64,000 nucleotides of DNA from a virus. The stretch is taken from positions 1,341 to 65,340 of IMG/VR virus record IMGVR_UViG_3300032516_000003, one strand, 5' to 3'. A program made the translations under genes and the position numbers. Shown here in pieces: positions 9,970-44,000 of this stretch (the stretch's first letter is position 1; every line of letters starts with the position of its first letter). A model generated the notes under the pieces. That model saw nothing but the letters and a program-made list of their open reading frames with translations, ran no database searches and was not told the DNA's origin.

Positions 9970-9970
9970 T

Positions 9971-10574: not shown

Positions 10575-10577
10575 TCA

Positions 10578-10607: not shown

Positions 10608-10631
10608 AGCCCTGACACGGGGAGGCGAAGG

Positions 10632-10892: not shown

Positions 10893-11146
10893 TGGAGAAC
10901 CTGTGGAGAGTCGGCTTCATGCCGCGGGCACTGGAACTGGTCACCCTGATGTCGGGGTTGGTCGAGATCCTCGACGTCTACTGGCATGTCGAAGACAGCG
11001 CCCTGATCTTCTTGGTGAAGAGCAAGAGCCACGAGTTGTTCCGTCAGGACTCCTTGCGGGGTACCCCGACCAAGCGGGTGCAGATGTCCAACCAGCCGCT
11101 GTACGTCGACCTAGCTGGTCTCAACGAGACCCGCCAGGTCCAGTAG
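10889..11146 (+). CDS. hypothetical protein, 85 aa
   Basis: ATGA overlap with XRE gene. Confidence 0.55.
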   Translation: MMENLWRVGFMPRALELVTLMSGLVEILDVYWHVEDSALIFLVKSKSHELFRQDSLRGTPTKRVQMSNQPLYVDLAGLNETRQVQ

Positions 11147-12022
11147 CGAATTCGCCGCCCCACGCAGCGGATCTATGTCGGTCTTCTTGATCTCGTCCCA
11201 GTCCAGTGGTTGCTTGTCGATGTAGTTGGTGAGCTCGTCGGCCTTCGACTGCAGACCCTTCGCCGCGGTGATGAGAGCCTGCAGGTTGCGGATGACCACG
11301 ACCGTCGGGGACTGAGTGGTCTTGAGCTTCTTGTCCTTCAACCGTTCCTTGCTCTCCTCCTGAGTCTCTTCCAGCATCACCCGCAGTTCTTCCTGCTGCT
11401 GCTTCTTGGGTAGGCGTGTGAGGCGGTTGGCCTGGTCGATCGTGATGAGTCCACGGTCGAGAGCCCGGCTGGCGGAAGGACACAGGTTCGCCGCCCGCTT
11501 TAGCGTCTCGCGGGCCTTGCTAGGGCTCACGCCTAGTTCCTTCGCCAGTTCCTTCACTGCTGTCTCTCGTGGCAAGGTCGGCCGGCCTGGCGATGGCTTC
11601 GTGCCCGAGCGCTTGTGCCGCTCAGCTTCGTCGGCAGCCTTCTTGGCCGCCTCGGTTTCGAGCAACTCTCCATAGCGCTTGAGACCCCAGCGCAGTTCGC
11701 TTTCCTTGGGGCTGCGGCGGTGCAGGTTCTCGATGATCGACAGGATCTCGGCGGTGCGGTCGTCGACTTGAGCTACCGCACAACGCGCCTCCTTGATCCC
11801 CTCCGCCTTCATGGAGAGGTAGCGCACCCGGCCGGCCAGGAGCTCGTAGGTGCCACTGATCTTGCCCTTCACCTGCCGGACTAGCAGCTGGTGCAGCTGA
11901 CCGAACTTGGCGATGCTGCCACCAAGTTCATCGATGTCTTTCGGGGTGATCTCTCGCTGCCAGTGGACGGGGCTGATATGGATGGCAGCGAGTGGGATGA
12001 TCTTGTCCTTGTACGGTATCAT
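11111..12022 (-). CDS. ParB-like nuclease-domain protein
   Basis: AGGAGG SD before ATG 12022 (MIPYKDK); N-terminal IPLAAIHISPVHWQRE...LGGSIAKFGQLHQLLVRQV...YELLAGRVRYL matches ParB/Srx N-domain, then HTH (TAVKELAKELGVSPSKARETLKRA). Confidence 0.8.
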   Translation of the reverse strand: MIPYKDKIIPLAAIHISPVHWQREITPKDIDELGGSIAKFGQLHQLLVRQVKGKISGTYELLAGRVRYLSMKAEGIKEARCAVAQVDDRTAEILSIIENLHRRSPKESELRWGLKRYGELLETEAAKKAADEAERHKRSGTKPSPGRPTLPRETAVKELAKELGVSPSKARETLKRAANLCPSASRALDRGLITIDQANRLTRLPKKQQQEELRVMLEETQEESKERLKDKKLKTTQSPTVVVIRNLQALITAAKGLQSKADELTNYIDKQPLDWDEIKKTDIDPLRGAANSLLDLAGLVETS

Positions 12023-12053
12023 CAGCGCCTCCTGGGTAAAGGAGTGGGTGGGC

Positions 12054-12092
12054 ACACCCGTAGACATGCCCACCCACTCGCTCTCGGTCTAG
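12054..12092. promoter_or_regulatory. perfect 13-bp inverted repeat GAGTGGGTGGGCA-N12-TGCCCACCCACTC
   Basis: between histone-fold gene stop and ParB-like gene SD; no T-tract on either side. Confidence 0.5.
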
Positions 12093-12286
12093 AAGTCCTC
12101 CAGCCGCACCGTGGCACGGCCGTTGGCCTTGCAGCGTCCGATTGCTTCGTTGACCCTGTCGGCCATCCACTGGTGGATGCCTTCCGCTGTCTCGCCGGCG
12201 AGGCGCAGACCGGCATCGCTGATGAGCTCCTTGAGCGAGGACGTGACGATGAGACGGGGTGCTTCCTTCACTTCCTTCTTGGCCAT
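12089..12286 (-). CDS. histone-fold protein (archaeal/bacterial histone-like), 65 aa
   Basis: AGGAGGAAGCA-ATG; full-length collinear similarity to HMf-type histone fold (LISDAGLRLAGETAEG...NGRATVRLEDF vs IIKDAGAERVSDDAR...GRKTIKAEDIE). Confidence 0.7.
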   Translation of the reverse strand: MAKKEVKEAPRLIVTSSLKELISDAGLRLAGETAEGIHQWMADRVNEAIGRCKANGRATVRLEDF

Positions 12287-12325
12287 TGCTTCCTCCTGGG
12301 TGAACCGGGGACCATCCCCGGAGTC

Positions 12326-12754
12326 TCAGCACTGCTTGTTGACGGCGAACATCACGGATGCGCGAAGGATGTCCTCGCAGACCCGCCGGCGCATGACGTC
12401 CTCGTCCTTGATCGAGGGACGAACCACGTGTACATCGAAACAGGAATACGACTCCTTGTCAACCGCTTGCTTCCAGCGGTAGCTCTGGACGATCCACCCC
12501 TTCACTACCCGCGTCTCCTGCCTGGTCAGTGGTGGCAGATGCGGACCGGGGTCCTCCTTCAGCCACTCCACCATCACATAGATGTCCAGAGGTGATACCC
12601 AGAGTGCCGCCTTGAAGTCCCACTCCCTGTATCGCCAGACCTGGGCGAGCTCTGGTAGGGGGCCGTGGGTAGGGTGTAGTGGGTCTCCGATCGCCTCATC
12701 TGGCCACTCCCCCAGGGGCGGTATGATGATGTCATAGAGTAGCTTGGGCTGCAT
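12326..12754 (-). CDS. hypothetical protein, 142 aa
   Basis: GGGAGG SD before ATG 12754 (MQPKLLYD); first gene of the minus-strand trio. Confidence 0.6.
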   Translation of the reverse strand: MQPKLLYDIIIPPLGEWPDEAIGDPLHPTHGPLPELAQVWRYREWDFKAALWVSPLDIYVMVEWLKEDPGPHLPPLTRQETRVVKGWIVQSYRWKQAVDKESYSCFDVHVVRPSIKDEDVMRRRVCEDILRASVMFAVNKQC

Positions 12755-12884
12755 GTTACCTCCCAACGTCAGTGATGCTCTTATCACACATTCCTGTGGT
12801 GTTTTCTAAGGCCGGGAAATCCCAACGATCCTGTGGCATAAGCCCGGTACGCACTGCTGATCGCTAAATTGTTCACTTTGGGGC

Positions 12885-12913
12885 TTGACAAAGCCGTGGT
12901 GATCGATCATAGT
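12885..12913 (+). promoter_or_regulatory. sigma70-type promoter TTGACA-17-CATAGT
   Basis: upstream of H1-like gene; spacer/-10 GATCGATCATAGT nearly identical to promoter at 863. Confidence 0.55.
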
Positions 12914-12949
12914 GTTTCTGTCAAGGCCGATCAACCCAGGAGGTACGGC

Positions 12950-13456
12950 ATGTACAACACGGACCAGTGGAAGATCATGAAGCAGCTCGCCGGCTCACTC
13001 CCGAAGCGTGAGTCCCTCAAGATCGGGGACATCAAGGACAAGTGCTTCAAGTCTGCCCCCAACGACCGCGTGGTGCGGAACGCCATCCGCAAGCCGGTCG
13101 CCGAGGGCCACGTCGAGATCGCCGATCGTGGCGACTATCGGCTGACGGCGAAGGGCGCCGCCTTCTGCCAGAAGATGGAGAAGGAGGGCTTCAAGCCGGC
13201 GTCAGTGCGTCAGATGGCGAAGCCGTCTCAATCGATCAAGAAGAGTGCCAAGAAGGCCGCCCCGAAGAAGGTGGCCAAGAAGAGTGCCAAGAAGGCCGCC
13301 CCGAAGAAGGTGGCCAAGACCAACGGAGCCAAGGTCGAGTCCAAGCCGACCGAGAAGTCCCAGGCCCCCGAACCCAAGAAGAGCTCGGTCAAGATCCCCC
13401 GCCCCAAGAAGGACGAGTCGGCAGCTGCCGTTCCTCCGTCCACTCTCAGCTTCTAG
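12950..13456 (+). CDS. H1/Hc1-like DNA-binding protein: wHTH-like N-domain plus Lys/Ala/Pro repeat tail
   Basis: CAGGAGG SD, ATG 12950; tail KKSAKKAAPKKVAKKSAKKAAPKKVAK...KKSSVKIPRPKK; downstream of TTGACA-17-CATAGT promoter; terminator hairpin 13483-13513. Confidence 0.75.
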   Translation: MYNTDQWKIMKQLAGSLPKRESLKIGDIKDKCFKSAPNDRVVRNAIRKPVAEGHVEIADRGDYRLTAKGAAFCQKMEKEGFKPASVRQMAKPSQSIKKSAKKAAPKKVAKKSAKKAAPKKVAKTNGAKVESKPTEKSQAPEPKKSSVKIPRPKKDESAAAVPPSTLSF

Positions 13457-13482
13457 CAGCATCCTCCTACTGCTTGATCATC

Positions 13483-13513
13483 AAAGGCCTCACGAGGAGG
13501 CCTTTGGTGTTTC
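13483..13513 (+). terminator. hairpin AAAGGCCTC-N5-GAGGCCTTT + GGTGTTTC
   Basis: after H1-like gene. Confidence 0.55.
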
Positions 13514-13523
13514 AGGAGATCGC

Positions 13524-13727
13524 ATGGCCGACAAACCCGAGAACGAAGAACTCACTCGCTTGGCAGTGCTGATGATAAAGCGGCGTGATCAGATTTTGCT
13601 TCTGGACAAGCTCACCGCCCTAGAGAAACGACTGGACAAGTTGTGCCGCCGGATGAAGGACTGTGAGGAGCTAGTTGCCTGGTCACGGCGGCGTAGGCCG
13701 ATCAAGAAGACGAGGAGGAAGCGATGA
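13524..13727 (+). CDS. hypothetical small basic protein, 67 aa
   Basis: CAGGAGATCGC-ATG. Confidence 0.5.
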   Translation: MADKPENEELTRLAVLMIKRRDQILLLDKLTALEKRLDKLCRRMKDCEELVAWSRRRRPIKKTRRKR

Positions 13728-14179
13728 ACGAGAAGATCGATGTGATCGATGACCAGGAGCGACGCGCTCAGATCCTGCTGTTGGGGGACGCACTCTTTCA
13801 CTTGCTCTCAGAGCGGTTTTCGAGCTACTGTCTGGACAACGAGGGAGAACGCGCCGACCTATCGGTGGCACTCGCCGAGTGGCTGATCGTAGCGGACAAG
13901 ACGACCGAGATCACGCAGCAGATCACACTGCCGCGTGCAAAGAGCAGGGTAGGGTTCAATGTGGTCGATGAGGTGACAGGCAAGAGAATCGTCTACCTGG
14001 AACTCGAACGCGACCGGATGATGACCGATGGCGACTTTCTCCAGCTTCAGAACTTCTTCTGGACCACCATCGGCCTAGCGATCGTTGATCACCCTGAGGT
14101 CATCAGAACGCTGCAGGCCGCCGGCATCAAGGTCACCCGTGGTGGTGACGACGAGGGAGGACAGCTAGCACCCGCCTGA
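13724..14179 (+). CDS. hypothetical protein, 151 aa
   Basis: GGAGGAAG SD, ATGA coupling. Confidence 0.65.
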   Translation: MNEKIDVIDDQERRAQILLLGDALFHLLSERFSSYCLDNEGERADLSVALAEWLIVADKTTEITQQITLPRAKSRVGFNVVDEVTGKRIVYLELERDRMMTDGDFLQLQNFFWTTIGLAIVDHPEVIRTLQAAGIKVTRGGDDEGGQLAPA

Positions 14180-14211
14180 ACGCCGTCGGGCATCTCCGGC
14201 AGGAGGAACGA

Positions 14212-14664
14212 ATGCTGGAGATCACACTTGCAGCACTCCTACTGCTTCACCCAGACCCAGATTCGAACGCGGTACAGCACTACGCCCAGTACATCACGGA
14301 GGGGGGAGAACGGGTCGACATCGACCCGCTACTGGTAGTGGCGCTCATCCATCGGGAAGGCCGATGGAATCCCAAGGCTAAGAGTGGCAAAGGCGACTTC
14401 GGGCTGATGCAGATACGGGCACGGTCCTACAAGCGCTTCCGCAACAACCCCAAGAAGCTCCTTGACCCCCAGGTGAACATCACGGTAGGAATCGAGACTC
14501 TCGCCATGTGGCGAGAGTTCCACCAGAAGAACTGCGGCAAGAAGCGGCACGACTGGTGGGCGCACTATCAACACGGGATGCACGTAGGCAACAATCGATC
14601 AGCGCAGCGTGTCGAGCGACTGTGGCACTGGCTGCGTGAACGAACCAGGAGACATGAGACATGA
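14212..14664 (+). CDS. lytic transglycosylase (SLT domain) with N-terminal hydrophobic segment
   Basis: GGCAGGAGGAACGA-ATG; ALIHREGRWNPKAKSGKGDFGLMQI matches SLT catalytic region (E...S...GLMQ). Confidence 0.8.
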   Translation: MLEITLAALLLLHPDPDSNAVQHYAQYITEGGERVDIDPLLVVALIHREGRWNPKAKSGKGDFGLMQIRARSYKRFRNNPKKLLDPQVNITVGIETLAMWREFHQKNCGKKRHDWWAHYQHGMHVGNNRSAQRVERLWHWLRERTRRHET

Positions 14665-15422
14665 CCTTCCCCATCATCGGCCTCTGCGGTGTAGCAGGTG
14701 TCGGCAAGGACGTAGTGGCTGACTTCTTCGTCGAGAAGGGCTTCGCCAAGGTCGCCTTCAGCGATCCGATGAAGCGCTTCATCCAGTATCTCTTCAACCT
14801 CGATGACGAGCAGCTGTGGGGTCCCTCGAAGACCCGCAACGAGGAGATCACCTTCACTGAAGAGGAGTGGGTTGGCATCACCCAGCGCATGGAGCAGGAG
14901 GCCTGGGACTTCGTCGAGGAGACGCGGATGAAGTGCCAGGTGCCGGCTTTGCTCGGTCTCTGGGACTGGCTCGGGGTCCTCTACCACCAGCAGAAGATTT
15001 CGCCGCGCATCATCCTGCAGACGTTGGGCACCGAGTGGGGACGCACCCTAGATCTGCACGTCTGGACGGACTACCTGCATCGGGTAGTCCGCCCCCAAAT
15101 GGAGATAGGGTACACCTACTCGGCTCAGAAGGGAGTGGAGGAGCGACGGCAAGAGTTTGCCGGCATCATCATCCCAGATCACCGCTTCGCCAATGAGGTC
15201 ATGGCCACTCGTGAAGCCGGCGGCTACATGATTCGCGTACACCGACCTGGCCGGCCGCAAGAGATAACTCTCCCAGGCATCCAGGGGCACGCCAGTGAGA
15301 AGGAGCAGGAGACTCTGGCGGCTGACTTCTTCCACAGCGAACTCTTGATGCCGGAGGGGCTGGATCGAGCACATGCAGTTCTGGAGGACTTTTTCTTCAA
15401 GCGCCCGTGGGGTGTGGGCTAG
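14661..15422 (+). CDS. deoxynucleoside-monophosphate kinase (T4 gp1-like)
   Basis: IIGLCGVAGVGKDVVADFF vs T4 gp1 LIFLSGVKRSGKDTTADFI; IIIPDHRFANEV...MIRVHRPG vs YIVPDTRQDHEM...VIHVVRPG. Confidence 0.8.
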   Translation: MTFPIIGLCGVAGVGKDVVADFFVEKGFAKVAFSDPMKRFIQYLFNLDDEQLWGPSKTRNEEITFTEEEWVGITQRMEQEAWDFVEETRMKCQVPALLGLWDWLGVLYHQQKISPRIILQTLGTEWGRTLDLHVWTDYLHRVVRPQMEIGYTYSAQKGVEERRQEFAGIIIPDHRFANEVMATREAGGYMIRVHRPGRPQEITLPGIQGHASEKEQETLAADFFHSELLMPEGLDRAHAVLEDFFFKRPWGVG

Positions 15423-15428
15423 AGAGAC

Positions 15429-15459
15429 GGGGTGGGCCGGACGACACCGGCCCACCCCA
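15429..15459. terminator. hairpin GGGGTGGGCCGG-N7-CCGGCCCACCCC between convergent genes
   Basis: 12-bp perfect GC stem; weak T-tracts. Confidence 0.5.
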
Positions 15460-15465
15460 CCGAGA

Positions 15466-15870
15466 TCAGACCTTCTCAATCTCGTAGTTCGTGCGGTTCC
15501 CGTCTTTCGTCTCCTTGACCAGGACGGGGATCCCAGTTGGGAACTCCTCCCACATCTTCGCTTCGATCGCGGCGCGGTGTGCCTCGTCGAAGACGTCATC
15601 TCCCCTGTACTTGTGGCTGTGGTCGTTGTCGCGGAAAGGCACCCACAGGTGTGGGCGGCGCCCTTCCACGACTTCGACAATGACGGTGGGTGTCAGGAAA
15701 CCGTGCCGATGGAGCGTACCGTCATGACGTTCCTCGTCGATGGGCGGCAGGTAGCGAGTGTCGTGTCCAGAGACTACGCAGTTGTAGATCTTCACCGGGA
15801 TGGTCGCAGTCGTTTCCTTCTCGGACTTGTCCTTCTTGGTCGTTTCCTTCTTGGTGGTCTTCGTGGTCAT
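15466..15870 (-). CDS. hypothetical protein with Thr/Lys-rich N-terminus, 134 aa
   Basis: GGAGGACAGC-ATG; convergent to dNMP kinase with perfect 12-bp-stem hairpin 15429-15459 between; CGGTATAAGG box upstream. Confidence 0.65.
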   Translation of the reverse strand: MTTKTTKKETTKKDKSEKETTATIPVKIYNCVVSGHDTRYLPPIDEERHDGTLHRHGFLTPTVIVEVVEGRRPHLWVPFRDNDHSHKYRGDDVFDEAHRAAIEAKMWEEFPTGIPVLVKETKDGNRTNYEIEKV

Positions 15871-15912
15871 GCTGTCCTCCGGCTGAAGGCTGATGGTTCA
15901 CTTCGTGTTTAC

Positions 15913-15922
15913 CTTATACCGT
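15913..15922 (-). promoter_or_regulatory. CGGTATAAGG -10-like box
   Basis: minus strand, 43 nt upstream of ATG 15870. Confidence 0.4.
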
Positions 15923-15933
15923 GGGAGGATCAA

Positions 15934-16539
15934 ATGTTGATTGGGATCGATGAGGCCGGCATGGGCACCTTGGCCGGCCCCATGACTGCCGCAGTGGTGG
16001 TCCTGGCCGACGATGCACAGATCAAAGGTGTCCGTGACTCCAAGACCATGAACAACGAGCAGCGGGAGGAAGTCGCGGCCAGGATCATGACCGCAGCGTT
16101 GTTTTACCAGGTCGGTTCTCGGGAAGCTGAGGACATCGACAAGCGGGGGCTCTCCAAGTGCTGGCTGGAGCTGGTCCGCGAGCTGGCCATCGCAGCCAAG
16201 GCAGCCCTGTCCGAGCAGCTGATGGACAAGCCCACGAACGAGAAGATCATCCTAGACGGCAACCGGCTGATCGGGTTACCCTATGTGATACCCGTGGTCA
16301 AGGCCGATGCCACGCATCTCGCCGTCTCCGCCGCGTCGATCCTCGCCAAGTACAAGCAAGTGTGCGCAATGATCGACGCCCATAGGCTCTATCCAGCCTA
16401 CGGCTTCTTAGAACATCACGGCTACTGTACGATCAACCACAAGACCAAACTGAGGGAGCGGGGACCATGTCCAATCCATCGCAGGAGCTTCCGACCGGTG
16501 AGGGACCTTACTCGGTCTTCTGGTTCCGGACGCGGCTAG
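15934..16539 (+). CDS. rnhB: ribonuclease HII
   Basis: GTGGGAGGATCAA-ATG; IGIDEAGMGTLAGPMTAAVVVL, DSKTM, ASILAKY and C-terminal HRRSFRPV are RNase HII hallmarks. Confidence 0.9.
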   Translation: MLIGIDEAGMGTLAGPMTAAVVVLADDAQIKGVRDSKTMNNEQREEVAARIMTAALFYQVGSREAEDIDKRGLSKCWLELVRELAIAAKAALSEQLMDKPTNEKIILDGNRLIGLPYVIPVVKADATHLAVSAASILAKYKQVCAMIDAHRLYPAYGFLEHHGYCTINHKTKLRERGPCPIHRRSFRPVRDLTRSSGSGRG

Positions 16540-25763: not shown

Positions 25764-26138
25764 GTGGCCATCAAGAAATTCTCGAAGGAGTATCTCAGCG
25801 CTCTCAAGAGCCCGCATTTCAAGCGGGTCTGTGTGGGGGTCTTCGAGCGCGCCAACGGCATCTGCGAACGGTGCCACAAGCGTCCGGCAACAGACCCACA
25901 CCACAAGCACTACAACACGCTCGGACGTGAACGTCCGGAAGATCTTCTCGCCGTGTGCCGCCCCTGTCATGACATCCTGACGCGGGAAATGGAAGATGAG
26001 CGGGAGGAGCGCTATCAGAACGCACGCGTCGAGGGATGGGCAACCAAGAAGTACGGCCCAGACTGGTCGAGCTATCGCGACCCAGTCGAGGTCGAACAGG
26101 AGTTCGAGGCCTGGCTAGAACGGCGTGGAGAGTACTGA
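25764..26138 (+). CDS. small HNH-type nuclease
   Basis: GTG start; CERCHKRPATDPHHKHY...LLAVCRPCHDIL = CxxC...HH...CxxCH HNH motif. Confidence 0.7.
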   Translation: MAIKKFSKEYLSALKSPHFKRVCVGVFERANGICERCHKRPATDPHHKHYNTLGRERPEDLLAVCRPCHDILTREMEDEREERYQNARVEGWATKKYGPDWSSYRDPVEVEQEFEAWLERRGEY

Positions 26139-26542: not shown

Positions 26543-27200
26543 GATCCTCAGGAACTGGGCCTTGCTGTACGGCCCAGAAGAAGCCGCCCGCATGGGCGAG
26601 GAGATGTTCACGAAGCACAAGATCAAGGTGACGGACTTACGGGGCGTACCGGGGATCAGTCGCTTGGTGCTGGTACCTACAGGAGAGAATGTGAATGCTC
26701 AAGGAAAAGGAAGCGATGGTGGAGAATTCGGTGAAGGCGATCAACGCCTTCTGTCGGGTGATGGAACTGCACACGAAGAACATCGCCCAGGGCGGGCCGT
26801 CGATCCTGACCAAGGGCACGCCGATGTGCCGGGCGGTGGATGCGGCCCAGGAGGGGCTGGCGAGGGAGGTCGAGTTCTTGTCCTTCCTCCGCGCGGGCAA
26901 CAAAGGGAAGGTCTCTCCCGAAGGCTGATCTCCCTGGAACTGACGGAGCACCGGAAGGACCTGACCGCCTTCGTGACCGCCTATGACTGCGTGCATCGCC
27001 GCGTCCAGGAGGTCAAGGACCATGGCCGGCTGATGAAGCTGGTGGACTGGTCCGGGACGGCGGCAGTCATGGGTGCGTTGGAGTTGTCGATCCACTCGAT
27101 CGAGCGGGTGGTGGAGGAGCTGGAGAACATACTCCTCCGCATCGATGGTGGGGCGATCCCGAACCTAGACGAGGATGACCATGGTCAAGATCGTACTTGA
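26412..27200 (+). CDS. frame-0 ORF with two coding-like segments (26412-26690, 26922-27200) separated by a low-GC3 Gly-rich stretch
   Basis: no stop in frame for 789 nt; middle 230 nt is coding-like only in the +1 frame (gene 26695-26928); one gene with an overprinted internal gene, or two compensating indels. Confidence 0.3.
   Translation: MKPDDSMTGQLVPALEAIRKKIKEGLILSNASLPIEDLSIQVAKILRNWALLYGPEEAARMGEEMFTKHKIKVTDLRGVPGISRLVLVPTGENVNAQGKGSDGGEFGEGDQRLLSGDGTAHEEHRPGRAVDPDQGHADVPGGGCGPGGAGEGGRVLVLPPRGQQREGLSRRLISLELTEHRKDLTAFVTAYDCVHRRVQEVKDHGRLMKLVDWSGTAAVMGALELSIHSIERVVEELENILLRIDGGAIPNLDEDDHGQDRT
26695..26928 (+). CDS. hypothetical protein, 77 aa, embedded in +1 frame of 26412-27200
   Basis: ACAGGAGAGAATGTGA-ATG; in-frame TGA immediately upstream; very high GC3. 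Confidence 0.55.
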   Translation: MLKEKEAMVENSVKAINAFCRVMELHTKNIAQGGPSILTKGTPMCRAVDAAQEGLAREVEFLSFLRAGNKGKVSPEG

Positions 27201-27657
27201 GGAACGCCTGTCCCAGGCGCTCAATGCCACCCGGGTGGTCGAGGTGGTGCGTTCCTCACAAGAGGACGGCTCCATCAAGTTGCTCTTCCGCGTGACGCAG
27301 AAGCGCGTCTGGCTGGCCATCCTGGAGTACGCCCTGGCGCGGGCCTCGACCTGGTCAGCACATATCTGCCAGCAGTACTTCATGCGTAACGGCAAGCTGG
27401 TCTACGGTTGGAACTTCATCCTCCGGCCGGCCGAAGGCGTGAATCTCGATGAGGCGGTGTCCGATGCCGGGCAGCTGCTGGTGCAGGCGGCCAGGACCGC
27501 GCCGCAGGTGATGGCCAAGACCGACGCCGACAGCTTCCCATTGGTGGGCTACAGCCCGCGCCGGACGGCCAAGCTGGTCTTCGACCCGCGTATGCCGGGA
27601 CCAGACAGGGGCGGGCCCAGTCACAAGGGCGCCTATCCCATTACCAGCAAGGGCTAG
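27181..27657 (+). CDS. hypothetical protein, 159 aa
   Basis: GAGGATG SD-like before second ATG. Confidence 0.6.
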   Translation: MVKIVLEERLSQALNATRVVEVVRSSQEDGSIKLLFRVTQKRVWLAILEYALARASTWSAHICQQYFMRNGKLVYGWNFILRPAEGVNLDEAVSDAGQLLVQAARTAPQVMAKTDADSFPLVGYSPRRTAKLVFDPRMPGPDRGGPSHKGAYPITSKG

Positions 27658-27658
27658 C

Positions 27659-28018
27659 ATGCTGCTGGTCCGGACCTACACGGCGCCGTCTCCGATTCAC
27701 GGCACTGGCCTGTTCGCAGCCGAACCCATTCCGGAAGGGACCGCCATCTGGGAGTTCACCCCAGGGCTAGATCAGTTGCTGTACCACCAGCCCGAGGGTG
27801 AGACGAAGGACTGGTCTTGGCGGGAAGAGGACTGCTGGGTGGTCCCCCAGGATGATGCCCGCTTCATCAACCACTCTCTCACCCCCAGTGGGAAAAGTGG
27901 TGGCAGTCGTCATGGAATCGACCGTGCTGCGCGGGACATCCTGCCTGGGGAAGAGATCACGCTGGACTACGCTACTTTCGATCTGGACTACCCAGAGTAC
28001 GAGCAGGCATTGAGGTAA
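27659..28018 (+). CDS. SET-domain protein (putative protein-lysine methyltransferase)
   Basis: SPIHGTGLFA..IPEGTAIWEF...ARFINHSLTPSGK....AARDILPGEEITLDY follows SET-domain landmarks (GxG, NHS, post-SET ExxY) as in minimal viral/bacterial SETs. Confidence 0.8.
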   Translation: MLLVRTYTAPSPIHGTGLFAAEPIPEGTAIWEFTPGLDQLLYHQPEGETKDWSWREEDCWVVPQDDARFINHSLTPSGKSGGSRHGIDRAARDILPGEEITLDYATFDLDYPEYEQALR

Positions 28019-28020
28019 TC

Positions 28021-28677
28021 ATGGGCGAGTTCTTCGGTCCTGAGGCCAGTCAAGAGCTGCAGAAGCGCATCGAGGAGAAGGGCGCCACCGAGCTGACCCC
28101 GGCTGAAGCTGTAGTGGTCAAGCAACAGCAGGAGGCGCTCGACAAGTTCTTCGCCCAGCGCATCCAGGCCACCTACAAGATCGAGGTCGAGTTTGGCAAG
28201 GGCCGCTCCACCTGGAAGCACTTCCCGGGCACGCTGTCACTCTACCTGAGCGGCACCAAGCTCCACGGTGGTGGGGACGAGAAGCTCTACCTCTGCCCCC
28301 GCGATGACTGTACTGGTGTAATCTTCCCGGGCGAGCGGCTGGGTGCCCAGGTCCACTGCCGCAAGTGCCAGATGATGTGGCCGGAGACCCAGCTGGTCGG
28401 TGAGATCTTCTACCGGCTCTCGCCCAACGATTGGTCTGTCGTGATCCACCGCTTCTTTGTCCGGCTGGACCACAATGCCGACATCTACCTCAAGTACCAC
28501 CCGACCGACATCCGCTACCAGACGGCCATGGAGCTCGCCCGGAAGCGCGGTGGCGAGGCGGTGAACAAGGCCCGGAACAACCGCGGCTTGCACATCTACC
28601 CCTTGAAGAACATCATCAAGGACACCAGCACCGGGGCCGATCTTCTGAAGCGGATCGAGGGCTTCATCAAGTCTTAG
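28021..28677 (+). CDS. hypothetical protein with Cys4 cluster (CPRDDC...CRKC), 218 aa
   Basis: GAGGTAATC-ATG. Confidence 0.65.
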   Translation: MGEFFGPEASQELQKRIEEKGATELTPAEAVVVKQQQEALDKFFAQRIQATYKIEVEFGKGRSTWKHFPGTLSLYLSGTKLHGGGDEKLYLCPRDDCTGVIFPGERLGAQVHCRKCQMMWPETQLVGEIFYRLSPNDWSVVIHRFFVRLDHNADIYLKYHPTDIRYQTAMELARKRGGEAVNKARNNRGLHIYPLKNIIKDTSTGADLLKRIEGFIKS

Positions 28678-35654: not shown

Positions 35655-38600
35655 ATGCCCATCTCCTCACACCAAATTGGGGGTCTCATCGGTGGCCAGC
35701 AGGCCATGTTCGGGAATTTCCATTCCTACGCTCAGCAGATCAGTCCCTATGGCCAGCAGGGTCCTGTTGGCTACTCCAACCCCATGGCTGGCATGGGCGA
35801 GATGATGCAGCCTCCGCCAGCACCGCACGCCGAACTGCAACGGATGGGTGAGCAGTTCGGCACCGGCGCGGTGGGGATGATGGGCCACATCCCGGGCGCG
35901 ATGGGGATGATGGGGGTGGCCGGCGGCATCGGTGGCTTGATGGGCAGCCGAGCCCTAGGCGCGGTAGGTGGTGCGGCTTCGATGCTAGATCCCTTCTCCG
36001 CCGGAATTGGCGGCTTCGCGCGGGGCATCGGCTGGCAGAGTGGCGCCGGCATCGGGGCGAATCTAGGCCGATTGGGATCGATGGGTATCGGTGGTATTGC
36101 CCGCGCCGGCGTGGCTGGCCTAGGTGGAGCAGCGCTCGCGGCAGCCCCGGCGATGTTGGCCACGGAGGCCATTCGGTACGGGGCCGGCCAGATGGTCCAG
36201 GGTGCTCAGTACCAGAACCAGGTTGGCAACGTCCTCCAGAACCAGTTTCGCTTCCTCAGCCCCGGCGGTGGCACCGGCGGCTACGGCTTCAGCGGCCAGG
36301 AGCGCAAGGGCATCTCCGACATGATGCGGGAGATGGGTCACAAGGAGATGATGTCCACTCCCAGCGAGATGCTGCGATTGCTGCAGCAGGGCGCCGGGAT
36401 GGGGATGTTCAAGGCTGTCTCTGACGCCAAGGAGTTCAAGAAGAAGTTCCAGGAGATGGTGGGCACGGTCAAGGAAGTGGCCAAGGTGATGAACACGAGC
36501 CTGGAGGGGGCGATGCCCTTCCTGGCCCAGGCGCGACAGCAGGGCTTCTGGACGCCGCAGGACATCCTACGCAACGCCACCATGGCCCGCTCGACGGCCG
36601 CCGCCACCGGGATGTCAGTGGCACAAGTGCAGGGCATGATGGGTCAGGGAGCCCAGATGGCGCGTGCTGTGGGCGCTCAAGGGCGGGCAGGTGCCAGGGG
36701 CATGGCTCGGTCTTTGGAAACAGCTGCGGCCATGGTCGGCGGTCCAGGCAGGGCCGGTATGCTTTCCGAAGAGCAAGTCGGGGAGCTCACCGGGGGAATG
36801 CAAGGACCCGAAGCCGTTGCTGCTCTTGCTCAGAACATGCAGGAGGCCTCAACCCGCTTCGCACGGAGCAACGTGGCCCGCTGGACCATAGCAGCCCTTG
36901 GGAGGGACAAGTTTAGCCAACTTGATCCCGCCAAAGTACGAGCTCTCTCCGAGGGGAGGATCTCGATCGGTCAGATAGGCGGCGGGGCACGCGGCAACAT
37001 CGGTCGTCAAGGCGCTGCCAACTTCGTGATGAACGAGGAGCGTCTTCGTGGGCAACTGATTGAGATGGGTCCCCAGGCACAGATGGGCTTTGCCGCTGGT
37101 CTCGTCGGTGAGCGCTTGTACAGTGAGAAGCCGATGGACCAGTACGTCGTGCGCCGCATGTTGAAGCGTTTCGGTATTGCGCAGACCAGCCAAGAAGCCG
37201 ATGCCAAGGCTAAGATCATGCGCGACCTTCCGCGGATGATGCAGGAGATGAAAGTACGCAGCACGCTGGAGATGGATCAGACGGAACGAAACCAAGAGGA
37301 TCAACTCAGTCGCTCGTGGGATGGTGTCAAGCGCCAGATGGGCAAGTGGTGGGATGCCAACGTGAAGGAGCCGCTGCAGAAGGCTGGCGCCGATATGGCT
37401 CATTCGGCCAGTGAGTGGTTCGAGCGGGCCTCGGACCGGATGTTTGGTCGGGTGCAGAAACGCCATCAGATCGGGGCTGTCTCCCAGATGGGTGGGCGGG
37501 CCATGAGCGAATACGCTCTGACCGGCAACACCCGGCAGATGGAGATCGCATTCGGTGAACGTGGAAGTGCAAAGATAGGTGGTGGAGCTGGAGCTCTGGG
37601 CCTGACAGGCTTTGATGCAGGCATGGGGAACGCGTTTGGTGGCCAGGGAGTTCTGCGCGGTGCGCAGAATCTGTACTCCGGCGCCATGGGGATGGGGTTC
37701 AACAAGACCAACGCCAACATCGAGTGGCTGGCCAGAATGGGTGTGAAGGAAGGGGCGGTTGGGACGGAGGCGGAACGCCAGGCGTTGCTCAAGCAGGGTG
37801 GGTATCTAAGCGGCCGTACCAGCGGCGGTCCTGGAGTTGGTGCCTACCGTGTGATGGCCGAGGCTGATGTGAAGAAGGCGGTCAGCGGCTATCAGGCGGC
37901 AGTTGGTGGAGACATCACCGAGGAGCGGGCCAAGGGATTGGGCTATGACTCTGCCAAGGAGGCCAAGGTCGCCCTAGAGAAGGGCAAGCGGATCATGGGT
38001 GATCCATCCTTGGGCTTGAAGATGCAGCGCATTGCCCGGGAGACCGGCAAGTCCGGTCGCGAGCTGCTGGAGGAATACACTCGTCGTGCCCAGAAGGGTG
38101 AGTTCGGCGAAGACGCGAAGTCCTTCCTCGGTCAAGGTGACCGAGCTGAGCAAGTCCATCGTCTCCATGCCGCCATGGACCAAAAGACACGGGAGGGCTA
38201 TGGCGGCGGTGATCTGCGCGGCGAAGCCCCCAGTCAGATCGATCCTTTCCGTATGACGGAGAAGCAGCTGGCTGAGCACACGGAGAAGCAGGAAGCTCGC
38301 CTGGCCGAAGCTGCTGGTGGGGAGGGCGGAGGGCCCATGAAATGGGTCCGTCGTGGCGTAGAGGCGCTCGACAAGGCAGCAGCCTTCGCTGGCGGTCCTC
38401 TGGCAGATCTCGCTTCCTCCATGGGCCTCACGACCACAGGCTTGGCCAAGAAGCTCATGCCCAAGGCGGTGACGCAGGAGTCGGTGGGCAAGCTGCGCGA
38501 GAAGGGTGGTCCGATGATGGACGAGGCCATCCGGACTCTCGCCAATGACAAAGCTACCCCAGAGGAGAAAACGAAGGCCCGGCAGTTCTTGAAGGACTTC

Positions 38601-39557
38601 AGATCGGAAAACAAGGATCTGCCGGATGACCAAGCGCGGGCACTGGAGGTCATGGGCGGCGAAGGTGGCAATCGGCAGGAGGCCGACGCTGCGATGAAGG
38701 GCATCGCTGGCGCCATCGGCACACGTGATCAACAAGCTGTCGCAGCACTGGTCGGTCGCCGCGTCAATCGTATGAAGCAGAACATGGGCGAGCAGTACGA
38801 TCAGGCCATGGCCCTGACCACGGCTGTTGGTGCTGAGGCTTCGGGTCTCACCGGCATCGGCAAGGAGGTTGAGGGTCTGGTGAAGGGTGCTGGCACGGAA
38901 GATCCGTACAAGACCCAGGACCGGCTTTCCAAGATCGCAGCTGCAGCCTCGAAGATGGATCCCAAGCAGCTGGCTGAGTTCAAGGAGAAGTTCGCTGGGG
39001 TGCCCGGGGCGGAGATGATCAGTGAGGCCTTGGAAGGTGGCACTCAGGCCAAGGAGACCAGCAAGGCGTTGGTGACTGGCGGCAAGGGTGGCATGGGCCG
39101 CGCCTACCAGTTGGTGCAGGAACTTACCGGCAGGAAGCTGACGACGGCGCAGTACAGAGCGTTGCAGAAGGGCGACAAGAAGGCAGCCGAAGCCCTGCTG
39201 AGCGGTGTTGAGGGTGGCCGCAAAGAGATGGCCGAGAAGCTCTTCGGCGCCATCGGTTCGCAGGACGAAGCAGCGGCGACGGACGTCCAGTCCCGGATGG
39301 CCGGCGAGCGGGCCGGCGGGGCCCTCACCGGGGTCAAGCGGCGGACGCCGGAAGAGGTTGCGGAGGACATCGCCAAGAAGGCCAAGGGTGGGGAGATGTT
39401 TGGCCGCCTAGGCAGCGGCGAGGGAATGCACCAGCAGATGCTCATCACCAACCGGCTGCTGGGGGATATCGCGGCGAAGGTTGGCAAAGAAGGCAACACA
39501 GGTGCCCCAGCCGAGAAGCCCGTGGGTGGAGCACAGAAGAAAACAGAAGTGAGGTAG
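35655..39557 (+). CDS. tape-measure-like protein (1300 aa, Gly/Ala/Met/Gln-rich, helical repeats)
   Basis: TTAGGAGCCGAGC-ATG; size, low complexity and position ahead of Dit-/Tal-sized genes. Confidence 0.6.
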   Translation: MPISSHQIGGLIGGQQAMFGNFHSYAQQISPYGQQGPVGYSNPMAGMGEMMQPPPAPHAELQRMGEQFGTGAVGMMGHIPGAMGMMGVAGGIGGLMGSRALGAVGGAASMLDPFSAGIGGFARGIGWQSGAGIGANLGRLGSMGIGGIARAGVAGLGGAALAAAPAMLATEAIRYGAGQMVQGAQYQNQVGNVLQNQFRFLSPGGGTGGYGFSGQERKGISDMMREMGHKEMMSTPSEMLRLLQQGAGMGMFKAVSDAKEFKKKFQEMVGTVKEVAKVMNTSLEGAMPFLAQARQQGFWTPQDILRNATMARSTAAATGMSVAQVQGMMGQGAQMARAVGAQGRAGARGMARSLETAAAMVGGPGRAGMLSEEQVGELTGGMQGPEAVAALAQNMQEASTRFARSNVARWTIAALGRDKFSQLDPAKVRALSEGRISIGQIGGGARGNIGRQGAANFVMNEERLRGQLIEMGPQAQMGFAAGLVGERLYSEKPMDQYVVRRMLKRFGIAQTSQEADAKAKIMRDLPRMMQEMKVRSTLEMDQTERNQEDQLSRSWDGVKRQMGKWWDANVKEPLQKAGADMAHSASEWFERASDRMFGRVQKRHQIGAVSQMGGRAMSEYALTGNTRQMEIAFGERGSAKIGGGAGALGLTGFDAGMGNAFGGQGVLRGAQNLYSGAMGMGFNKTNANIEWLARMGVKEGAVGTEAERQALLKQGGYLSGRTSGGPGVGAYRVMAEADVKKAVSGYQAAVGGDITEERAKGLGYDSAKEAKVALEKGKRIMGDPSLGLKMQRIARETGKSGRELLEEYTRRAQKGEFGEDAKSFLGQGDRAEQVHRLHAAMDQKTREGYGGGDLRGEAPSQIDPFRMTEKQLAEHTEKQEARLAEAAGGEGGGPMKWVRRGVEALDKAAAFAGGPLADLASSMGLTTTGLAKKLMPKAVTQESVGKLREKGGPMMDEAIRTLANDKATPEEKTKARQFLKDFRSENKDLPDDQARALEVMGGEGGNRQEADAAMKGIAGAIGTRDQQAVAALVGRRVNRMKQNMGEQYDQAMALTTAVGAEASGLTGIGKEVEGLVKGAGTEDPYKTQDRLSKIAAAASKMDPKQLAEFKEKFAGVPGAEMISEALEGGTQAKETSKALVTGGKGGMGRAYQLVQELTGRKLTTAQYRALQKGDKKAAEALLSGVEGGRKEMAEKLFGAIGSQDEAAATDVQSRMAGERAGGALTGVKRRTPEEVAEDIAKKAKGGEMFGRLGSGEGMHQQMLITNRLLGDIAAKVGKEGNTGAPAEKPVGGAQKKTEVR

Positions 39558-39560
39558 CTG

Positions 39561-39773
39561 ATGGCATGTCGACAAGAGGTGAGCAAGCGGTACATGGTGG
39601 CCAACGGCCGCGTGGTCACCGTCTACGTCCGCAACGGCATCGTGCCGGAAGATCCTCTGATCAGTGGAGCCCGGTGCAAGGCCTTGTCGGTGCGTACCGG
39701 TGAGGTCAACGACGCCAAGCGGGTGTCGCGCACGATCAAGGACTACCTGATCAAGACTAACATCTCCATCTAG
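39561..39773 (+). CDS. hypothetical small protein, 70 aa
   Basis: ORF directly after TMP-like gene. Confidence 0.5.
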   Translation: MACRQEVSKRYMVANGRVVTVYVRNGIVPEDPLISGARCKALSVRTGEVNDAKRVSRTIKDYLIKTNISI

Positions 39774-39781
39774 GAGCTGAC

Positions 39782-41005
39782 ATGGCCGATCCGGTGTTCG
39801 TGGAGTTGCAGACCGACGCCTTTGCCGAGAACTTCGATCGGTTCAAGTTCAGGCCGGCCAACGGCGGCGTGCGGCGGCCGGTTCGTGGCTTCGAGATCAA
39901 GGAAGACACCTACGGGATGATCAAGGTCATCCGTGCCGACGGGACCATGATCCCCCTGACCGATGCCGCCGGCCCACTCTCACCCTCTTCTGGCAGCGAG
40001 ACCGGTGCCGGCTCGGGTGTACCCCAGCAGGGAGCGACAAAGCCGCGTACTGGAGCCACCTACAACTACTCCAACTTCATCATCCAGAGCGTCGTGGAGA
40101 GCCGGCAGGAGAAGGCCCAGGTCCTGGAGACCTTCGGTGACACCTTCGTGTTCTTCTTCGGTGAGCGGCCGCGCATCCTGCAGGTCAGTGGCATCCTGAT
40201 GAACACTCTGGACTTCAACTGGCGTACGGAGTTCTGGTACAACTACGAGAACACCCTCCGCGGCACCAAGCTCGTCGAGCAGAACGCCCGCATCTACCTC
40301 TTCTACGACGATCTGGTCGTGGAGGGGTACATGCTGGGCGCCAATGCTCAAGACCTGGCGGAGAACCCGTACCACATCCCGTTCAGCTTCCAGCTCTTTG
40401 TCACCAATCACCAGTACCTCGGCAACATTGGCCAGGAGGACTATCCGATCACTCACGCGGTCAACCTCAAGCCGCTGCTCACGGCGACGGAGGTCATGGA
40501 AGCCAAGAACATCCTCAAGTCGCTGGGCATCCAGACGCAGAAGACCGACACGCTGGTGGGCTCGTTGCTCGACTCATTCCGCTCCATGAGTTCTGGTGGA
40601 CTCACCGTCAAGGCCCCATTGATTGAAGGCGTCAGTTTGAGCCTCCAGTCGGCGGCCACGATGTTCTTAGACGTGGCCAAGACCTTCTTCGGCATGTTGA
40701 TCCCTTCTCGCCTGATGCCGTACCGCACCAAGCTGCGCGACAATCGGGATGAGTTCATGAACAACTACGAGTGGGGCTACATCTCCGATGATCGGGTGAC
40801 CAAGGCCATCCTTGATCAGCAATTCGCCAGCATGTTCGCGGTGGGAGGAGCCATCGTGGCTGATCTGGTAGGCGTCGGCATCAATGCGCTCGTGCCAGGA
40901 GTAGGTTGCCCGTTGCTGGAGGCCACGCATGGCCTATTCGCCACGAGTTCACCGATGCCGGTATACAACACCTTCGCGATCCGGACGACTGGATACGGAC
41001 AATGA
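39782..41005 (+). CDS. distal-tail (Dit)-like structural protein, 407 aa
   Basis: TAGGAGCTGAC-ATG; position after TMP. Confidence 0.6.
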   Translation: MADPVFVELQTDAFAENFDRFKFRPANGGVRRPVRGFEIKEDTYGMIKVIRADGTMIPLTDAAGPLSPSSGSETGAGSGVPQQGATKPRTGATYNYSNFIIQSVVESRQEKAQVLETFGDTFVFFFGERPRILQVSGILMNTLDFNWRTEFWYNYENTLRGTKLVEQNARIYLFYDDLVVEGYMLGANAQDLAENPYHIPFSFQLFVTNHQYLGNIGQEDYPITHAVNLKPLLTATEVMEAKNILKSLGIQTQKTDTLVGSLLDSFRSMSSGGLTVKAPLIEGVSLSLQSAATMFLDVAKTFFGMLIPSRLMPYRTKLRDNRDEFMNNYEWGYISDDRVTKAILDQQFASMFAVGGAIVADLVGVGINALVPGVGCPLLEATHGLFATSSPMPVYNTFAIRTTGYGQ

Positions 41006-44000
41006 CCGGCGGCCACTCTCTTGGTCTTCGCTGCTTCCTGGAGGGCATTGAGATCCCGGTCATCGGGGCCAACGTCACTGTCGTTGCCAATGCGCCGGTA
41101 GCTGCCCAGATCCAGGTGATCGGCACCGACCGGTTGCTGACCATCATGCCGCGTACGGTCGTTCACCTGTTCTTCTACGACTACGTCGATGCCGCCAACC
41201 CGCTCAGCCAGGAGGACATCAACAACGCCGGCCTCGACCCAGCTGATCAAGAGCTGTCCAAGTACCGGCTGCTCTTCATGGGCGAGGTGCAGGGCATTGG
41301 CTTCCAGAAGAATTCAGCGGAGCGGGCCGCCATCTTGAACTGCGTCGACTTCTCCAACTACTGGGACACCACCTACCAGTACAACTTCGGTGGCCAGCTC
41401 TTCGGTGGCCAGCAGCAAGCAGCCTTCATCGGGGCCAACGCCAACCTCTTCACAAGCCCTCTGGGTCATGGTGTCGGCACCTTCGCCGCGCTACTGCAAG
41501 GCAAGTCGGCCAACTTCCCCAAGATGAAGGGTCTGCTCGCCGGCGTCGTGCGGTGCCTCGAAGCAATCGGTGGCTGCTACTACGGCAAGGACACCTTCAA
41601 GGGTGCCAACGACTTCACTTCCCTGGCCGAGCTGCGGCTGAAGATCTTGCAGCAGATCACGGCCGCGGAGTTGGATGACAGCACCGCCAAGCTGTTCGCG
41701 CGCAAGGCCTTCAACATGTGGATGAACCAGCAGATGCAGGGGCTGGGCAAGCTGGTGACCTTCCGGGGTGTGGTGCAGATCCTCGACCAGTTCATCTTCC
41801 ATGAGATCTACCCCAATCCCTGCGCCCGCTACATTCCCGAGCAGCAGGTGCAGCAGCAGCAGGCCTACTACGCGGACGCCGCCACCGATCCACGCTTCCG
41901 CAGCATCTATGATGCTTACCGCAAGCTGATCAAGCTACTCAAGTCGGCGAAGAGCAACCTCAGCCCCATCGCCATCACCGAGAAAGAGATCAAGGCCGCG
42001 GCCTCTGATCTATCTCAGGCCGGAAGAGTGCTGGATTCACTCATCGCCAATGAGGCCTCGCGCTTTACCAGTGGCATCGGCGCGCAGATGCTTTCCGTGA
42101 ACCCGGAGGTGGAGCTGGCGCGAACCTGGAAGGTGCTGGGGGGCAGTTCGCATATCAATCCGGTGGATGTGTCTACTGCACTTGACGTGATGGCTCGTAG
42201 GGCAGCCTTGGGCTACATCGACACGGCGTTGAAAAACCTGCAGAGTGCGGTCACTGGCAAGGCGATCAAGAAGCAGAAGATGGTCACCACCACGCAGCGT
42301 AGTCGGGTCAATAACCAGATCTTGCGGCCTGACATCTGGTTCGTACCTCCGCCGCGCTGCAACGTCCTCTTCCCCGAGATGTACGAGAGCTTCCAATGGC
42401 AGCGCAACTTCCTGCGGGAGGTCTCTCGCATGGAGCTGCAGACTACGCATGAGATTCTTGGGGATGATGCGCTCTTCAACGGCCGCTACTACGCTCCTGA
42501 CGTCGCTGACATGCGGAAGGGGGTGAAGCTCTCCTCCCGAAACTTCTCCAGGCTGACCATGGAGCACGAGCTCTACACAGGGATCATCCCCATGTACGAG
42601 AAGCTGAGCGAGGCCAACCTATTCGCCATGGGCAGCAAGCAGGTGAACGTCGGGGGCGCCAAGGTCGGCTACGCCCAGCGGGCCGTCAACTTCATGTACT
42701 TCAAGCACCGCTTCGCCTCGCGGCAGATGGGAGCCAGTGGCCGCTTCAATCCGTGGTTCGTGGCTGGGTTCCCGGGGCTCTTGATTGACAAGCCGATGGA
42801 CGCGGTGAACCTGGCGATCTCCGGCCTACCGGTGGAAGACGCCCTGAAGGTGCTCGACTTCCAGCCGGACGACCCGTCGGAGATCACCAGAGCGGTGCTG
42901 CTGCAGAAGCTGGTGCCGATGCAGTACATGGGCATGTGTGCACAGCTGACACACAATCTCAGCCAGCAGGGTGGCCGCACGGAGTATGCCTTCACTCAGG
43001 CGCGAGTCCATCGTGAGGATGCCGAGTTCTTGGGCGTGGACAAGGCCACGGTCAACAAGAAGGTGGGTACTGGCTCGCGGACCTATGTGGTCAGTGCCGC
43101 GGTCACCAAGCCGCCAACCAAGGGGATGCTCGGCAGATATGGCGGTCCGCTCTCTTCAGTGAAGGATGTATCTTCCTCGTACAAGGGCCGCTACCTTACT
43201 GGCTTGCGGGACACGCGCAAGTTCCTTGGCACTGGCTCCAGCAGTGCCATCGCGCAGGAGTATTACCCAATCGATGGCGCGAAGGTGAAAGCCTACGAAG
43301 TCAAGGAGAGCTTCGACCGGCGAGCCAGAGTGAAGATCAATAAGCCCATCGAGGACGCCATCCGGCCACCCTGGATCTGGGACGGCTGGACCAACCTGAA
43401 GATCGGCGACACGTACCTGCAGTTCTTCGGCACCAACGCAATCACCGACATCGAGGGCTTCACTGCCACCGGCACGGCCGCAATCAATGCCATCGGCTCG
43501 GGCCTGGCCGAAGACTACGGCATGGTGATCGAGTCGTCTCAAGGAGTGGCCCAGGGCAGCGGCGTCAATCCCATGACTGCGCCTCAGACCCCACTCACAC
43601 CATTCTCGGGGGCGGCTCCCAACTACGGCCCACCTACGGCTGGACTGGGAGCACCATCGACGCCGAACCAACGGCCCCCGTCCACCAGTCTCTCGGCCTA
43701 CGACCAGAAGATCTCCGCGGCCACAATCCTCGCCATCGAGAAGGAACGGACGATCGAGAACGCGGTGGACTATCTGGTGCGGCTGTACAGTTACCTCAAG
43801 GCCAACAGCCTGGACGTGGGCCAGTTCCTACGCAACTACTCCTGGCGCCCAGTGGCGACGTTGGTGGACATCCTGGGCTCTTCCAAGTTCACCATCAGGC
43901 CAGATCCAGCCGATCCCGACAAGTTCGTCACCAGCGGACAAGAGGGCTTCCACAGCCGGGCCTTCAGTGATGAAGCCAACCTCTTCGGGCTAGTAGATCC

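Follow-up and report, generated by a model that had tools for sequence, protein, structure and literature searches.

A SET-domain gene of the bacterial small-SET family in a single-gene slot of a large phage genome

Does a phage carry its own protein-lysine methyltransferase, and if so, is it directed at the DNA-binding proteins of the same genome? The question is raised by a gene at positions 27659–28018 of a 64,000-nucleotide stretch of the IMG/VR virus record IMGVR_UViG_3300032516_000003 (the window). From its letters alone the product had been predicted to be a minimal SET-domain protein, and it had been proposed to act as the writer for two substrates encoded elsewhere in the window, a histone-fold protein and an Hc1-like protein, in an arrangement that would be new in a phage. 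The translation of the 119-amino-acid reading frame is exact, and the three ordered motifs on which the assignment was built are present: SPIHGTGLFA (amino acids 11–20), ARFINHS (67–73) and PGEEITLDY (96–104). The gene and its key segments are as follows.

27659..28018, plus strand: gene for the SET-domain protein, a candidate S-adenosylmethionine (SAM)-dependent protein-lysine methyltransferase; ATG start, 119 amino acids
27689..27718, plus strand: GxG SAM-binding motif of SET-N, SPIHGTGLFA, amino acids 11–20 (family alignment and alignments to MLL1 and vSET)
27812..27820, plus strand: W52-S53-W54, variant lysine-channel motif inside the diverged SET-I region, amino acids ~39–64 (family alignment)
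27857..27877, plus strand: ARFINHS, amino acids 67–73, NHS pseudoknot and SAM-binding motif (family, MLL1 and vSET alignments)
27947..27970, plus strand: GEEITLDY, amino acids 97–104, SET-C motif with the catalytic tyrosine Y104 (family, MLL1 and vSET alignments)

Judged by profile matching and by its predicted structure, the product of 27659–28018 is a genuine SET domain and not a chance match of motifs. The Pfam SET profile PF00856, against which a check had been suggested, matched with 44.9 bits (gathering cutoff 22.4; E 1.7e-11) over profile positions 1–104 of 105 and protein amino acids 15–104, and this was the sole Pfam domain found. In the PDB the best phmmer match was the SET domain of MLL1/KMT2A (E 3e-6, 30% identity), which a profile made from an alignment of 64 SET homologues retrieved at E 4.6e-27; the conservation counts given below are taken from the same alignment. 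An AlphaFold2 model built on these 64 sequences had a mean pLDDT of 95.5 and superposed on MLL1 SET and on the chlorovirus enzyme vSET (3KMA; TM 0.71 by query, 0.80 by target). Foldseek comparison of this model with the PDB returned 326 chains at E <= 1e-3; all 50 that were listed are SET domains, with MLL1 SET, vSET 3KMA, EZH2, SET7/9 and SETD8 at the top. Model and Foldseek matches together place the protein in the SET beta-fold, and a short helix (amino acids 111–118) follows the catalytic tyrosine in the model.

The motifs themselves are among the best preserved parts of the family. S11, I13 and G15 are invariant in the 64 homologues, with H14, G17, F19 and A20 conserved in at least 90%; G17 of the GxG element (H14-G15-T16-G17) is kept in 63 of 64, and so are N71 and H72 of the second motif (R68-F-I-N71-H72-S73). 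In the third motif E99 is invariant, and conservation is 90% or more at G97, E98, T101 and Y104, the last being present in 63 of the 64. Motif by motif the alignments to solved structures agree: SPIHGTGLFA pairs with SPIHGRGLF in MLL1 and SPLGGYGVFA in vSET (for which the comparison sequence is identical to PDB 1N3J), ARFINHS with ARFINHS and AIFNHS, and GEEITLDY with GEELTYDY and GEEITISY, respectively. Y104 falls in register with Y105 of vSET, as do the NHS motifs of the two proteins. The third motif had been described as post-SET-like; it is present, but it corresponds to the SET-C catalytic motif ELxF/YDY, and the protein has no cysteine-rich post-SET segment. Of the catalytic Tyr, Asn and His residues that were to be checked by alignment, Y104, N71 and H72 are retained; a second tyrosine, of the lysine channel, is replaced by W52, a substitution that we return to below.

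Relatives of this protein are widespread in bacteria. A homology search returned 67 proteins, including one identical fragment and one 120-amino-acid protein with 54% identity (P0002, on a 1.5-kb contig); the remainder are SET-only proteins of ~125–135 amino acids with 35–49% identity, and the closest full-length homologues lie at 45–54%. A scan of GTDB, with one genome per species, gave at least 463 confirmed relatives, and those listed include Acidobacteriota, Verrucomicrobiota, Alpha-, Beta- and Gammaproteobacteria, Bdellovibrionales, Gemmatimonadota, Chloroflexia, Cyanobacteria, CPR lineages and one archaeon. Bacterial stand-alone small SETs such as P0010 of a Calidithermus sp. and P0022 of a member of the Pyrinomonadaceae (45–49% identity, compared with 54% for P0002) resemble the phage protein in being acidic and SET-only and in sharing the elements MLLVRT..SPIHGxGLFA, ..DDARFINHS..PN (PS in the phage) and ..GEEITxDY. 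The phage protein differs from them in a SET-I region that is ~10 amino acids shorter, in W-S-W in place of Y-G-Y and in PS for PN after the NHS motif, and it is encoded in a phage genome whereas theirs are chromosomal genes. By these comparisons it belongs to the widespread family of stand-alone bacterial small SETs; vSET (22% identity) is not among its relatives. The bacterial homologues on long contigs occupy four unrelated neighbourhoods (CHAT/caspase, NIPSNAP, GNAT acetyltransferase and fatty-acid beta-oxidation genes), and neighbour clustering of 158 viral and bacterial SET loci revealed synteny only within lineages and no partner family common to all. Searches of the SET gene and its neighbours against PHROGs, NCBIfam and PADLOC returned nothing informative. 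One relative, locus L183 with 63% best-segment identity, was considered as a SET donor and rejected, being a frameshifted ordinary chromosomal copy. On this alphaproteobacterial metagenome-assembled chromosome (L183:3001-3382) the SET gene is split by the frameshift with its halves in different frames, and is either a pseudogene or an assembly error.

Two well-studied enzymes help to place the phage protein. Its size is that predicted for a minimal viral SET, since vSET (PBCV-1 A612L; PDB 1N3J/3KMA), the chlorovirus H3K27 methyltransferase, is likewise viral, SET-only and exactly 119 amino acids long, without a post-SET cysteine cluster; the two also share an aliphatic residue at the switch position (Ile in vSET, Leu in the phage protein) and the register of the catalytic tyrosine. 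At 22% identity, however, they are not orthologous: vSET has Y50 where the phage has W52, was not retrieved by phmmer with the phage sequence against the PDB at E <= 1, and works in the nucleus of an alga, on eukaryotic histone H3, whereas the host of the phage is a bacterium. The MLL1 SET domain (PDB 2W5Y, 7U5V) comes closest in sequence among the solved structures and has SPIHGxGLF, ARFINHS and GEExTxDY in common with the phage protein; it differs in its post-SET zinc cluster, its need for the WRAD complex and a tyrosine at the switch position, all of which the phage protein lacks.

How the gene came to lie where it does is best seen from its two immediate neighbours, which form the borders of the slot that it occupies.

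27175..27657, plus strand: conserved upstream gene, 160 amino acids, left boundary of the SET slot; its stop codon ends 1 nt before the SET start
28021..28677, plus strand: conserved downstream gene, 218 amino acids, CxxC zinc-ribbon-like, right boundary of the slot; it starts 2 nt after the SET gene

With first the 218-amino-acid gene and then a conserved 371-amino-acid gene as anchors, ~19 syntenic IMG/VR loci on contigs of 120–197 kb were identified and inspected within ±10 kb of the anchor genes. Homologues of the 218-amino-acid protein with 39–60% identity are encoded on six IMG/VR contigs of 70–197 kb. Homologues of the two flanking genes abut one another or overlap by a few bases in L092, L093, L094/95, L097, L100, L103/104, L107-L110 and L112-L115, and in the closest relative they are 2 nt apart; a SET-profile search of these syntenic loci found nothing, even at E <= 1 to 10. 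In the window the Shine-Dalgarno sequence of the 218-amino-acid gene, GAGG, sits within the last SET codons, and no promoter-like or terminator-like site was found flanking the SET gene. Its G+C content at third codon positions (GC3, 0.717 versus 0.857 and 0.872 in the abutting genes) and its codon adaptation index (0.64 versus 0.75 and 0.81) are lower than those of its neighbours, both values remaining within the range of the genome. With flanks that abut in relatives lacking SET, gaps of 1 and 2 nt, neither a promoter nor a terminator of its own and lower GC3 and codon adaptation, the gene has the marks of a single-gene cassette captured in the recent past, precisely inserted between two conserved phage genes and apparently co-transcribed with them.

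The flanking genes (160 and 218 amino acids, and another of 97 amino acids) were also considered as partners of SET and rejected, as they are not found beside SET genes elsewhere; beyond a weak IBR/zinc-ribbon hint they matched no Pfam or PHROG family. A gene for a small HNH endonuclease (25764–26138, plus strand), which matches HNH families of PHROGs with E values down to 4e-9, is located 1.5 kb upstream of SET and could represent a mobile element within this variable region.

The proposed substrates are encoded at two other positions in the window.

12089..12286, minus strand: 65-amino-acid alpha3 (face-to-face type) bacterial histone-fold protein (PDB phmmer)
12950..13456, plus strand: H1-like protein, 168 amino acids, pI 10.3, 34 Lys (alignment of 21 homologues, AlphaFold2)

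The histone fold had been correctly recognized: in phmmer searches of the PDB its best match was the Leptospira perolatii protein HLp (9QT0, E 2.6e-5), with HBb from Bdellovibrio at E 0.04 (8cmp/8fvx). HLp belongs to the face-to-face alpha3 histones and wraps DNA as a tetramer (PMC12701072); the 65-amino-acid protein retains the R/D clamp as R56/D63. The gene lies directly upstream of a ParB_N gene. Apart from the window phage, only L089/L090 (68% identity) was found to have it; it is absent from L099 and L109, where ParB adjoins a 153-amino-acid gene (p153), and neither the histone alignment nor a single ParB sequence retrieved anything when scanned against IMG/VR.

The description of the second protein as an Hc1-like protein with a Lys/Ala tail holds for its tail, which is rich in Lys, Ala and Pro, but not for the family assignment of the window copy, which has no Pfam match to Hc1, HC2, linker histone or any other Pfam family. 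Among its 21 homologues HC2 was matched by four and Mrr_N by one, and we retain the label H1-like on account of these four HC2 matches and of the architecture, which may be regarded as analogous to that of H1/Hc2. A conserved N-terminal domain of ~90 amino acids is predicted to form a winged helix (amino acids 1–80, pLDDT ~87), for which Foldseek returned MarR/PadR/AspA folds, and is followed by a tail predicted to be disordered (pLDDT <55); Hc1/Hc2 are not known to share such a winged-helix domain. Most of the homologues (P0072–P0091) end in a conserved xTLSF sequence, (A/S)(T/Q)L(S/T)F, at the extreme C-terminus, which looks like a short docking peptide, perhaps of a clamp-binding kind.

The Foldseek matches of the H1-like protein include the centromere-binding AspA of pNOB8, and a ParB gene is nearby; on these grounds a role in partition or DNA organization is possible. 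In the sequence that encodes its tail, a 39-bp unit is perfectly repeated in tandem (2.1 copies, 13237–13319) and gives rise to KKSAKKAAPKKVA units; on an ENA contig of 193.7 kb, near-identical in other respects, the protein is a 155-amino-acid version with one repeat unit fewer (P0072), the difference being due either to copy-number variation or to assembly collapse. Both candidate substrates belong to a module at 9295–16539 that comprises genes for a deoxynucleoside kinase (dNK), ParB_N, the histone, the 153-amino-acid protein, the H1-like protein, a 151-amino-acid protein, an SLT transglycosylase, a dNMP kinase and RNase HII, and that mixes nucleotide-metabolism with DNA-organization functions. 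It is syntenic with L089/L090, where the order is RNase HII, dNMP kinase, SLT, H1-like, p142, histone, ParB. Among the contents of the window, this conserved association of ParB, an alpha3 histone and an H1-like protein is more unusual than the SET gene.

Prokaryotic precedents exist for methylation of such proteins. The SET protein of Chlamydia pneumoniae, cpnSET, methylates Hc1, and Go1-SET of Methanosarcina mazei methylates MC1-alpha (PMC3980110); in the cpnSET–Hc1/Hc2 and Go1-SET–MC1-alpha systems, as in the phage, a SET protein and a lysine-rich DNA-binding protein are encoded in one genome. The phage SET could by extension be a dedicated chromatin writer that methylates lysines of the H1-like protein and/or the 65-amino-acid histone and so tunes how phage DNA is packaged or read during infection. 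The presence of all three genes in one genome, the basic tail of the H1-like protein set against an acidic SET protein and the HC2 matches of its homologues favour this idea, but its genomic predictions are not borne out. SET and the candidate substrate genes are 14–15 kb apart and in different transcription units. While SET is missing from all syntenic relatives examined, the H1-like gene is kept in the SET-less L100 and L109, and it is also present in L098 and L099, whose available sequence stops before the SET slot; the histone is missing from these relatives as well. At 80 other viral SET loci, none (0/80) has a histone or H1-like homologue within ±10 kb, and apart from one unrelated match these loci share no other gene with the window. 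A survey preprint on IMG/VR reports histone-methylation-type domains in Caudoviricetes, but a significant correlation between histones and chromatin proteins only in Megaviricetes and not in Caudoviricetes (10.1101/2024.12.06.627149). Given the absence of SET from relatives with the H1-like gene, the sporadic histone, the 80 unlinked loci and the lack of a conserved neighbour in bacteria, the comparative data speak against a co-evolved writer–substrate pair; the co-inheritance or linkage that would be expected of a pair of the cpnSET–Hc1 type was not found. We therefore consider a dedicated chromatin writer unlikely, and the pairing put forward in the original prediction is not upheld. It is also rather unlikely that the phage methylates its own H1-like and/or histone packaging proteins by way of a circuit assembled recently, in one lineage, from a captured bacterial SET and a pre-existing chromatin module; if true, this would be a minimal 'epigenetic' writer–substrate circuit that operates, within a bacterial cell, on the chromosome of a phage.

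The explanation that we favour, and regard on the whole as probable, is that of an accessory SET gene uncoupled from these proteins. A bacterial SET would have been captured by a ~190-kb myovirus as a single-gene cassette, and its product is very likely, from the residues that it retains, to be an active SAM-dependent protein-lysine methyltransferase. In the pseudoknot, the motifs GxG (G15/G17) and N71-H72 would hold SAM. The target lysine, presented in a groove that SET-I forms with the C-terminal segment, would enter a channel lined by Y104, W52 and L102 and be methylated on its epsilon-amine. L102 occupies what we take, from DIM-5 and MLL1, to be the Phe/Tyr-switch position, two residues before the catalytic tyrosine; the family has Cys, Ile, Val or Leu there, and vSET has Ile. 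By analogy, the non-aromatic L102, together with the change of Tyr to Trp, would favour a roomy channel, and with it more than mono-methylation and/or a specificity altered from that of the bacterial cousins. The protein is very acidic (pI 4.48 and net charge -12; family median pI 5.08), for which reason the substrate is probably a basic, lysine-rich protein. Relatives do without SET, and nowhere does it have a conserved partner; it is therefore probably an accessory host-takeover or fitness factor that would act in trans on a basic protein abundant in infected cells. The likeliest target would be a host nucleoid or ribosome-type protein, with the phage H1-like protein as a possible opportunistic one. 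To our knowledge, protein-lysine methylation, unlike ADP-ribosylation or phosphorylation, is not an established mechanism of phage takeover.

Several observations weigh against this account of an uncoupled accessory enzyme. The relatives were seen only within ±10 kb of the anchors, and a SET gene could lie elsewhere in their genomes, although the 80 IMG/VR contigs listed as carrying SET include none of theirs. The identical SET gene occurs on the 193.7-kb ENA metagenome contig and on a Logan contig, but both are 99.99% identical to the window, and comparison of these three assemblies of the phage consequently provides no signal of selection. The substrate class is argued from the charge of the enzyme and from analogy only. 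Finally, W52 and W54 replace family tyrosines at the lysine channel, which could reduce or change activity, and the SET-I region, which shapes substrate recognition in known SET proteins, is shortened by ~10 amino acids relative to bacterial homologues and differs from the family majority at nearly every position (39–64).

These last features are also what would be expected of a catalytically altered or inactive SET fold, serving as a binder or decoy for SAM or lysine peptides or acting on a non-lysine or non-protein acceptor. W52 aligns with Y50 of vSET and with the tyrosine of 'YMF' in MLL1 (Y-x-F in both enzymes), and the family majority motif is Y-G-Y, with Tyr in 44, Phe in nine, Trp in four and His in two of the 64 sequences at column 52 and Tyr in 47 and Trp in two at column 54. 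However, all of the SAM-binding residues and the catalytic Y104 are kept, the occurrence of Phe and Trp at position 52 in other members implies that a hydroxyl is not obligatory there, and the AlphaFold2 model is confident across the SET-I region (pLDDT 94–97). W52 is thus a minority variant within the family which does not by itself appear disqualifying for a SET methyltransferase, and we judge loss or redirection of catalysis to be improbable. A role in counter-defence, with SET methylating phage or host defence proteins so that masked lysines escape ubiquitin-like conjugation, acetylation or proteolytic tagging, is very improbable: its support is circumstantial, namely a sporadic single-gene accessory insertion in a block of small uncharacterized genes, a pattern typical of anti-defence genes, and against it there was no PADLOC match and no defence or anti-defence neighbour, nothing in the SET sequence points specifically to such a function, and we know of no anti-defence family that is a SET.

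The novelty that had been attached to a phage SET was overstated, as phage SET genes are numerous and have already been annotated. ORF62 of Stenotrophomonas phage vB_SmaM_Ps15 is an annotated SET-domain protein (PMC9025141); several UniProt entries from uncultured Caudovirales phages, each named 'SET domain containing protein' (A0A6J5L8Y2, A0A6J5P3I3 and A0A6J5PTS6), match the SET model structurally, and at least 117 IMG/VR stretches encode relatives of the phage SET. Among GenBank phages, tblastn with the phage SET and with a bacterial homologue found only LR756504.1, a 636-kb uncultured phage. Annotated phage SETs are 20–42% identical to that of the window and occur in other genomic contexts. 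As genes, then, phage SETs are not new; they are frequent in phage metagenomes, and the window gene is ordinary as a genomic observation. In another, low-GC myovirus lineage (a subset of L042–L082, 15–23 IMG/VR loci) SET is kept in conserved synteny, its neighbourhood including genes for a tail sheath (phrog_23, E 6e-55), a 954-amino-acid helicase/primase-like protein and an 83-amino-acid Arc-like repressor (for example L069:4869-8090, L082:7621-7872 and L042:10363-13227). That the gene is kept over so many loci indicates that phage SETs can be maintained, and this lineage is the better system for asking what they do. No biochemical characterization of any phage SET was found in the literature searched. 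The window protein is nevertheless a good experimental handle, being tiny and confidently folded, with catalytic residues intact and two plausible basic substrates in the same genome, and a simple methyltransferase assay on it could open the question of lysine methylation in phage takeover.

That the gene is phage-borne, as predicted, is clear from a tail sheath gene in the window (46632–48203, plus strand; phrog_15433, E 1e-93) and from tail-fibre-like, DNA ligase and peptidoglycan-binding/amidase (endolysin-like) genes. The window has a GC content of 60.7% and encodes no tRNAs. It derives from a large uncultured myovirus (~190 kb) of a poorly known lineage, with relatives of 120–197 kb in IMG/VR. 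A megablast search with 24 kb gave no match to GenBank phages, and the nearest cultured phages by tail sheath are phiKZ/PhiPA3-like jumbo phages, with only ~34% identity. We make no claim of a nucleus-forming, phiKZ-like context, as only the sheath is similar and the large open reading frames had no matches to RNA polymerase or other hallmark proteins.

Two large open reading frames of 1300 and 1093 amino acids (35655–44187, plus strand) had no Pfam or PHROG match, and the former was also without a tblastn match in GenBank phages. Genes of the tail region include those for a Kelch-repeat beta-propeller (55924–57468, plus strand) and a DUF2341/BNR-like protein (50562–53039, plus strand), which may be receptor-binding or glycan-binding components of the virion.

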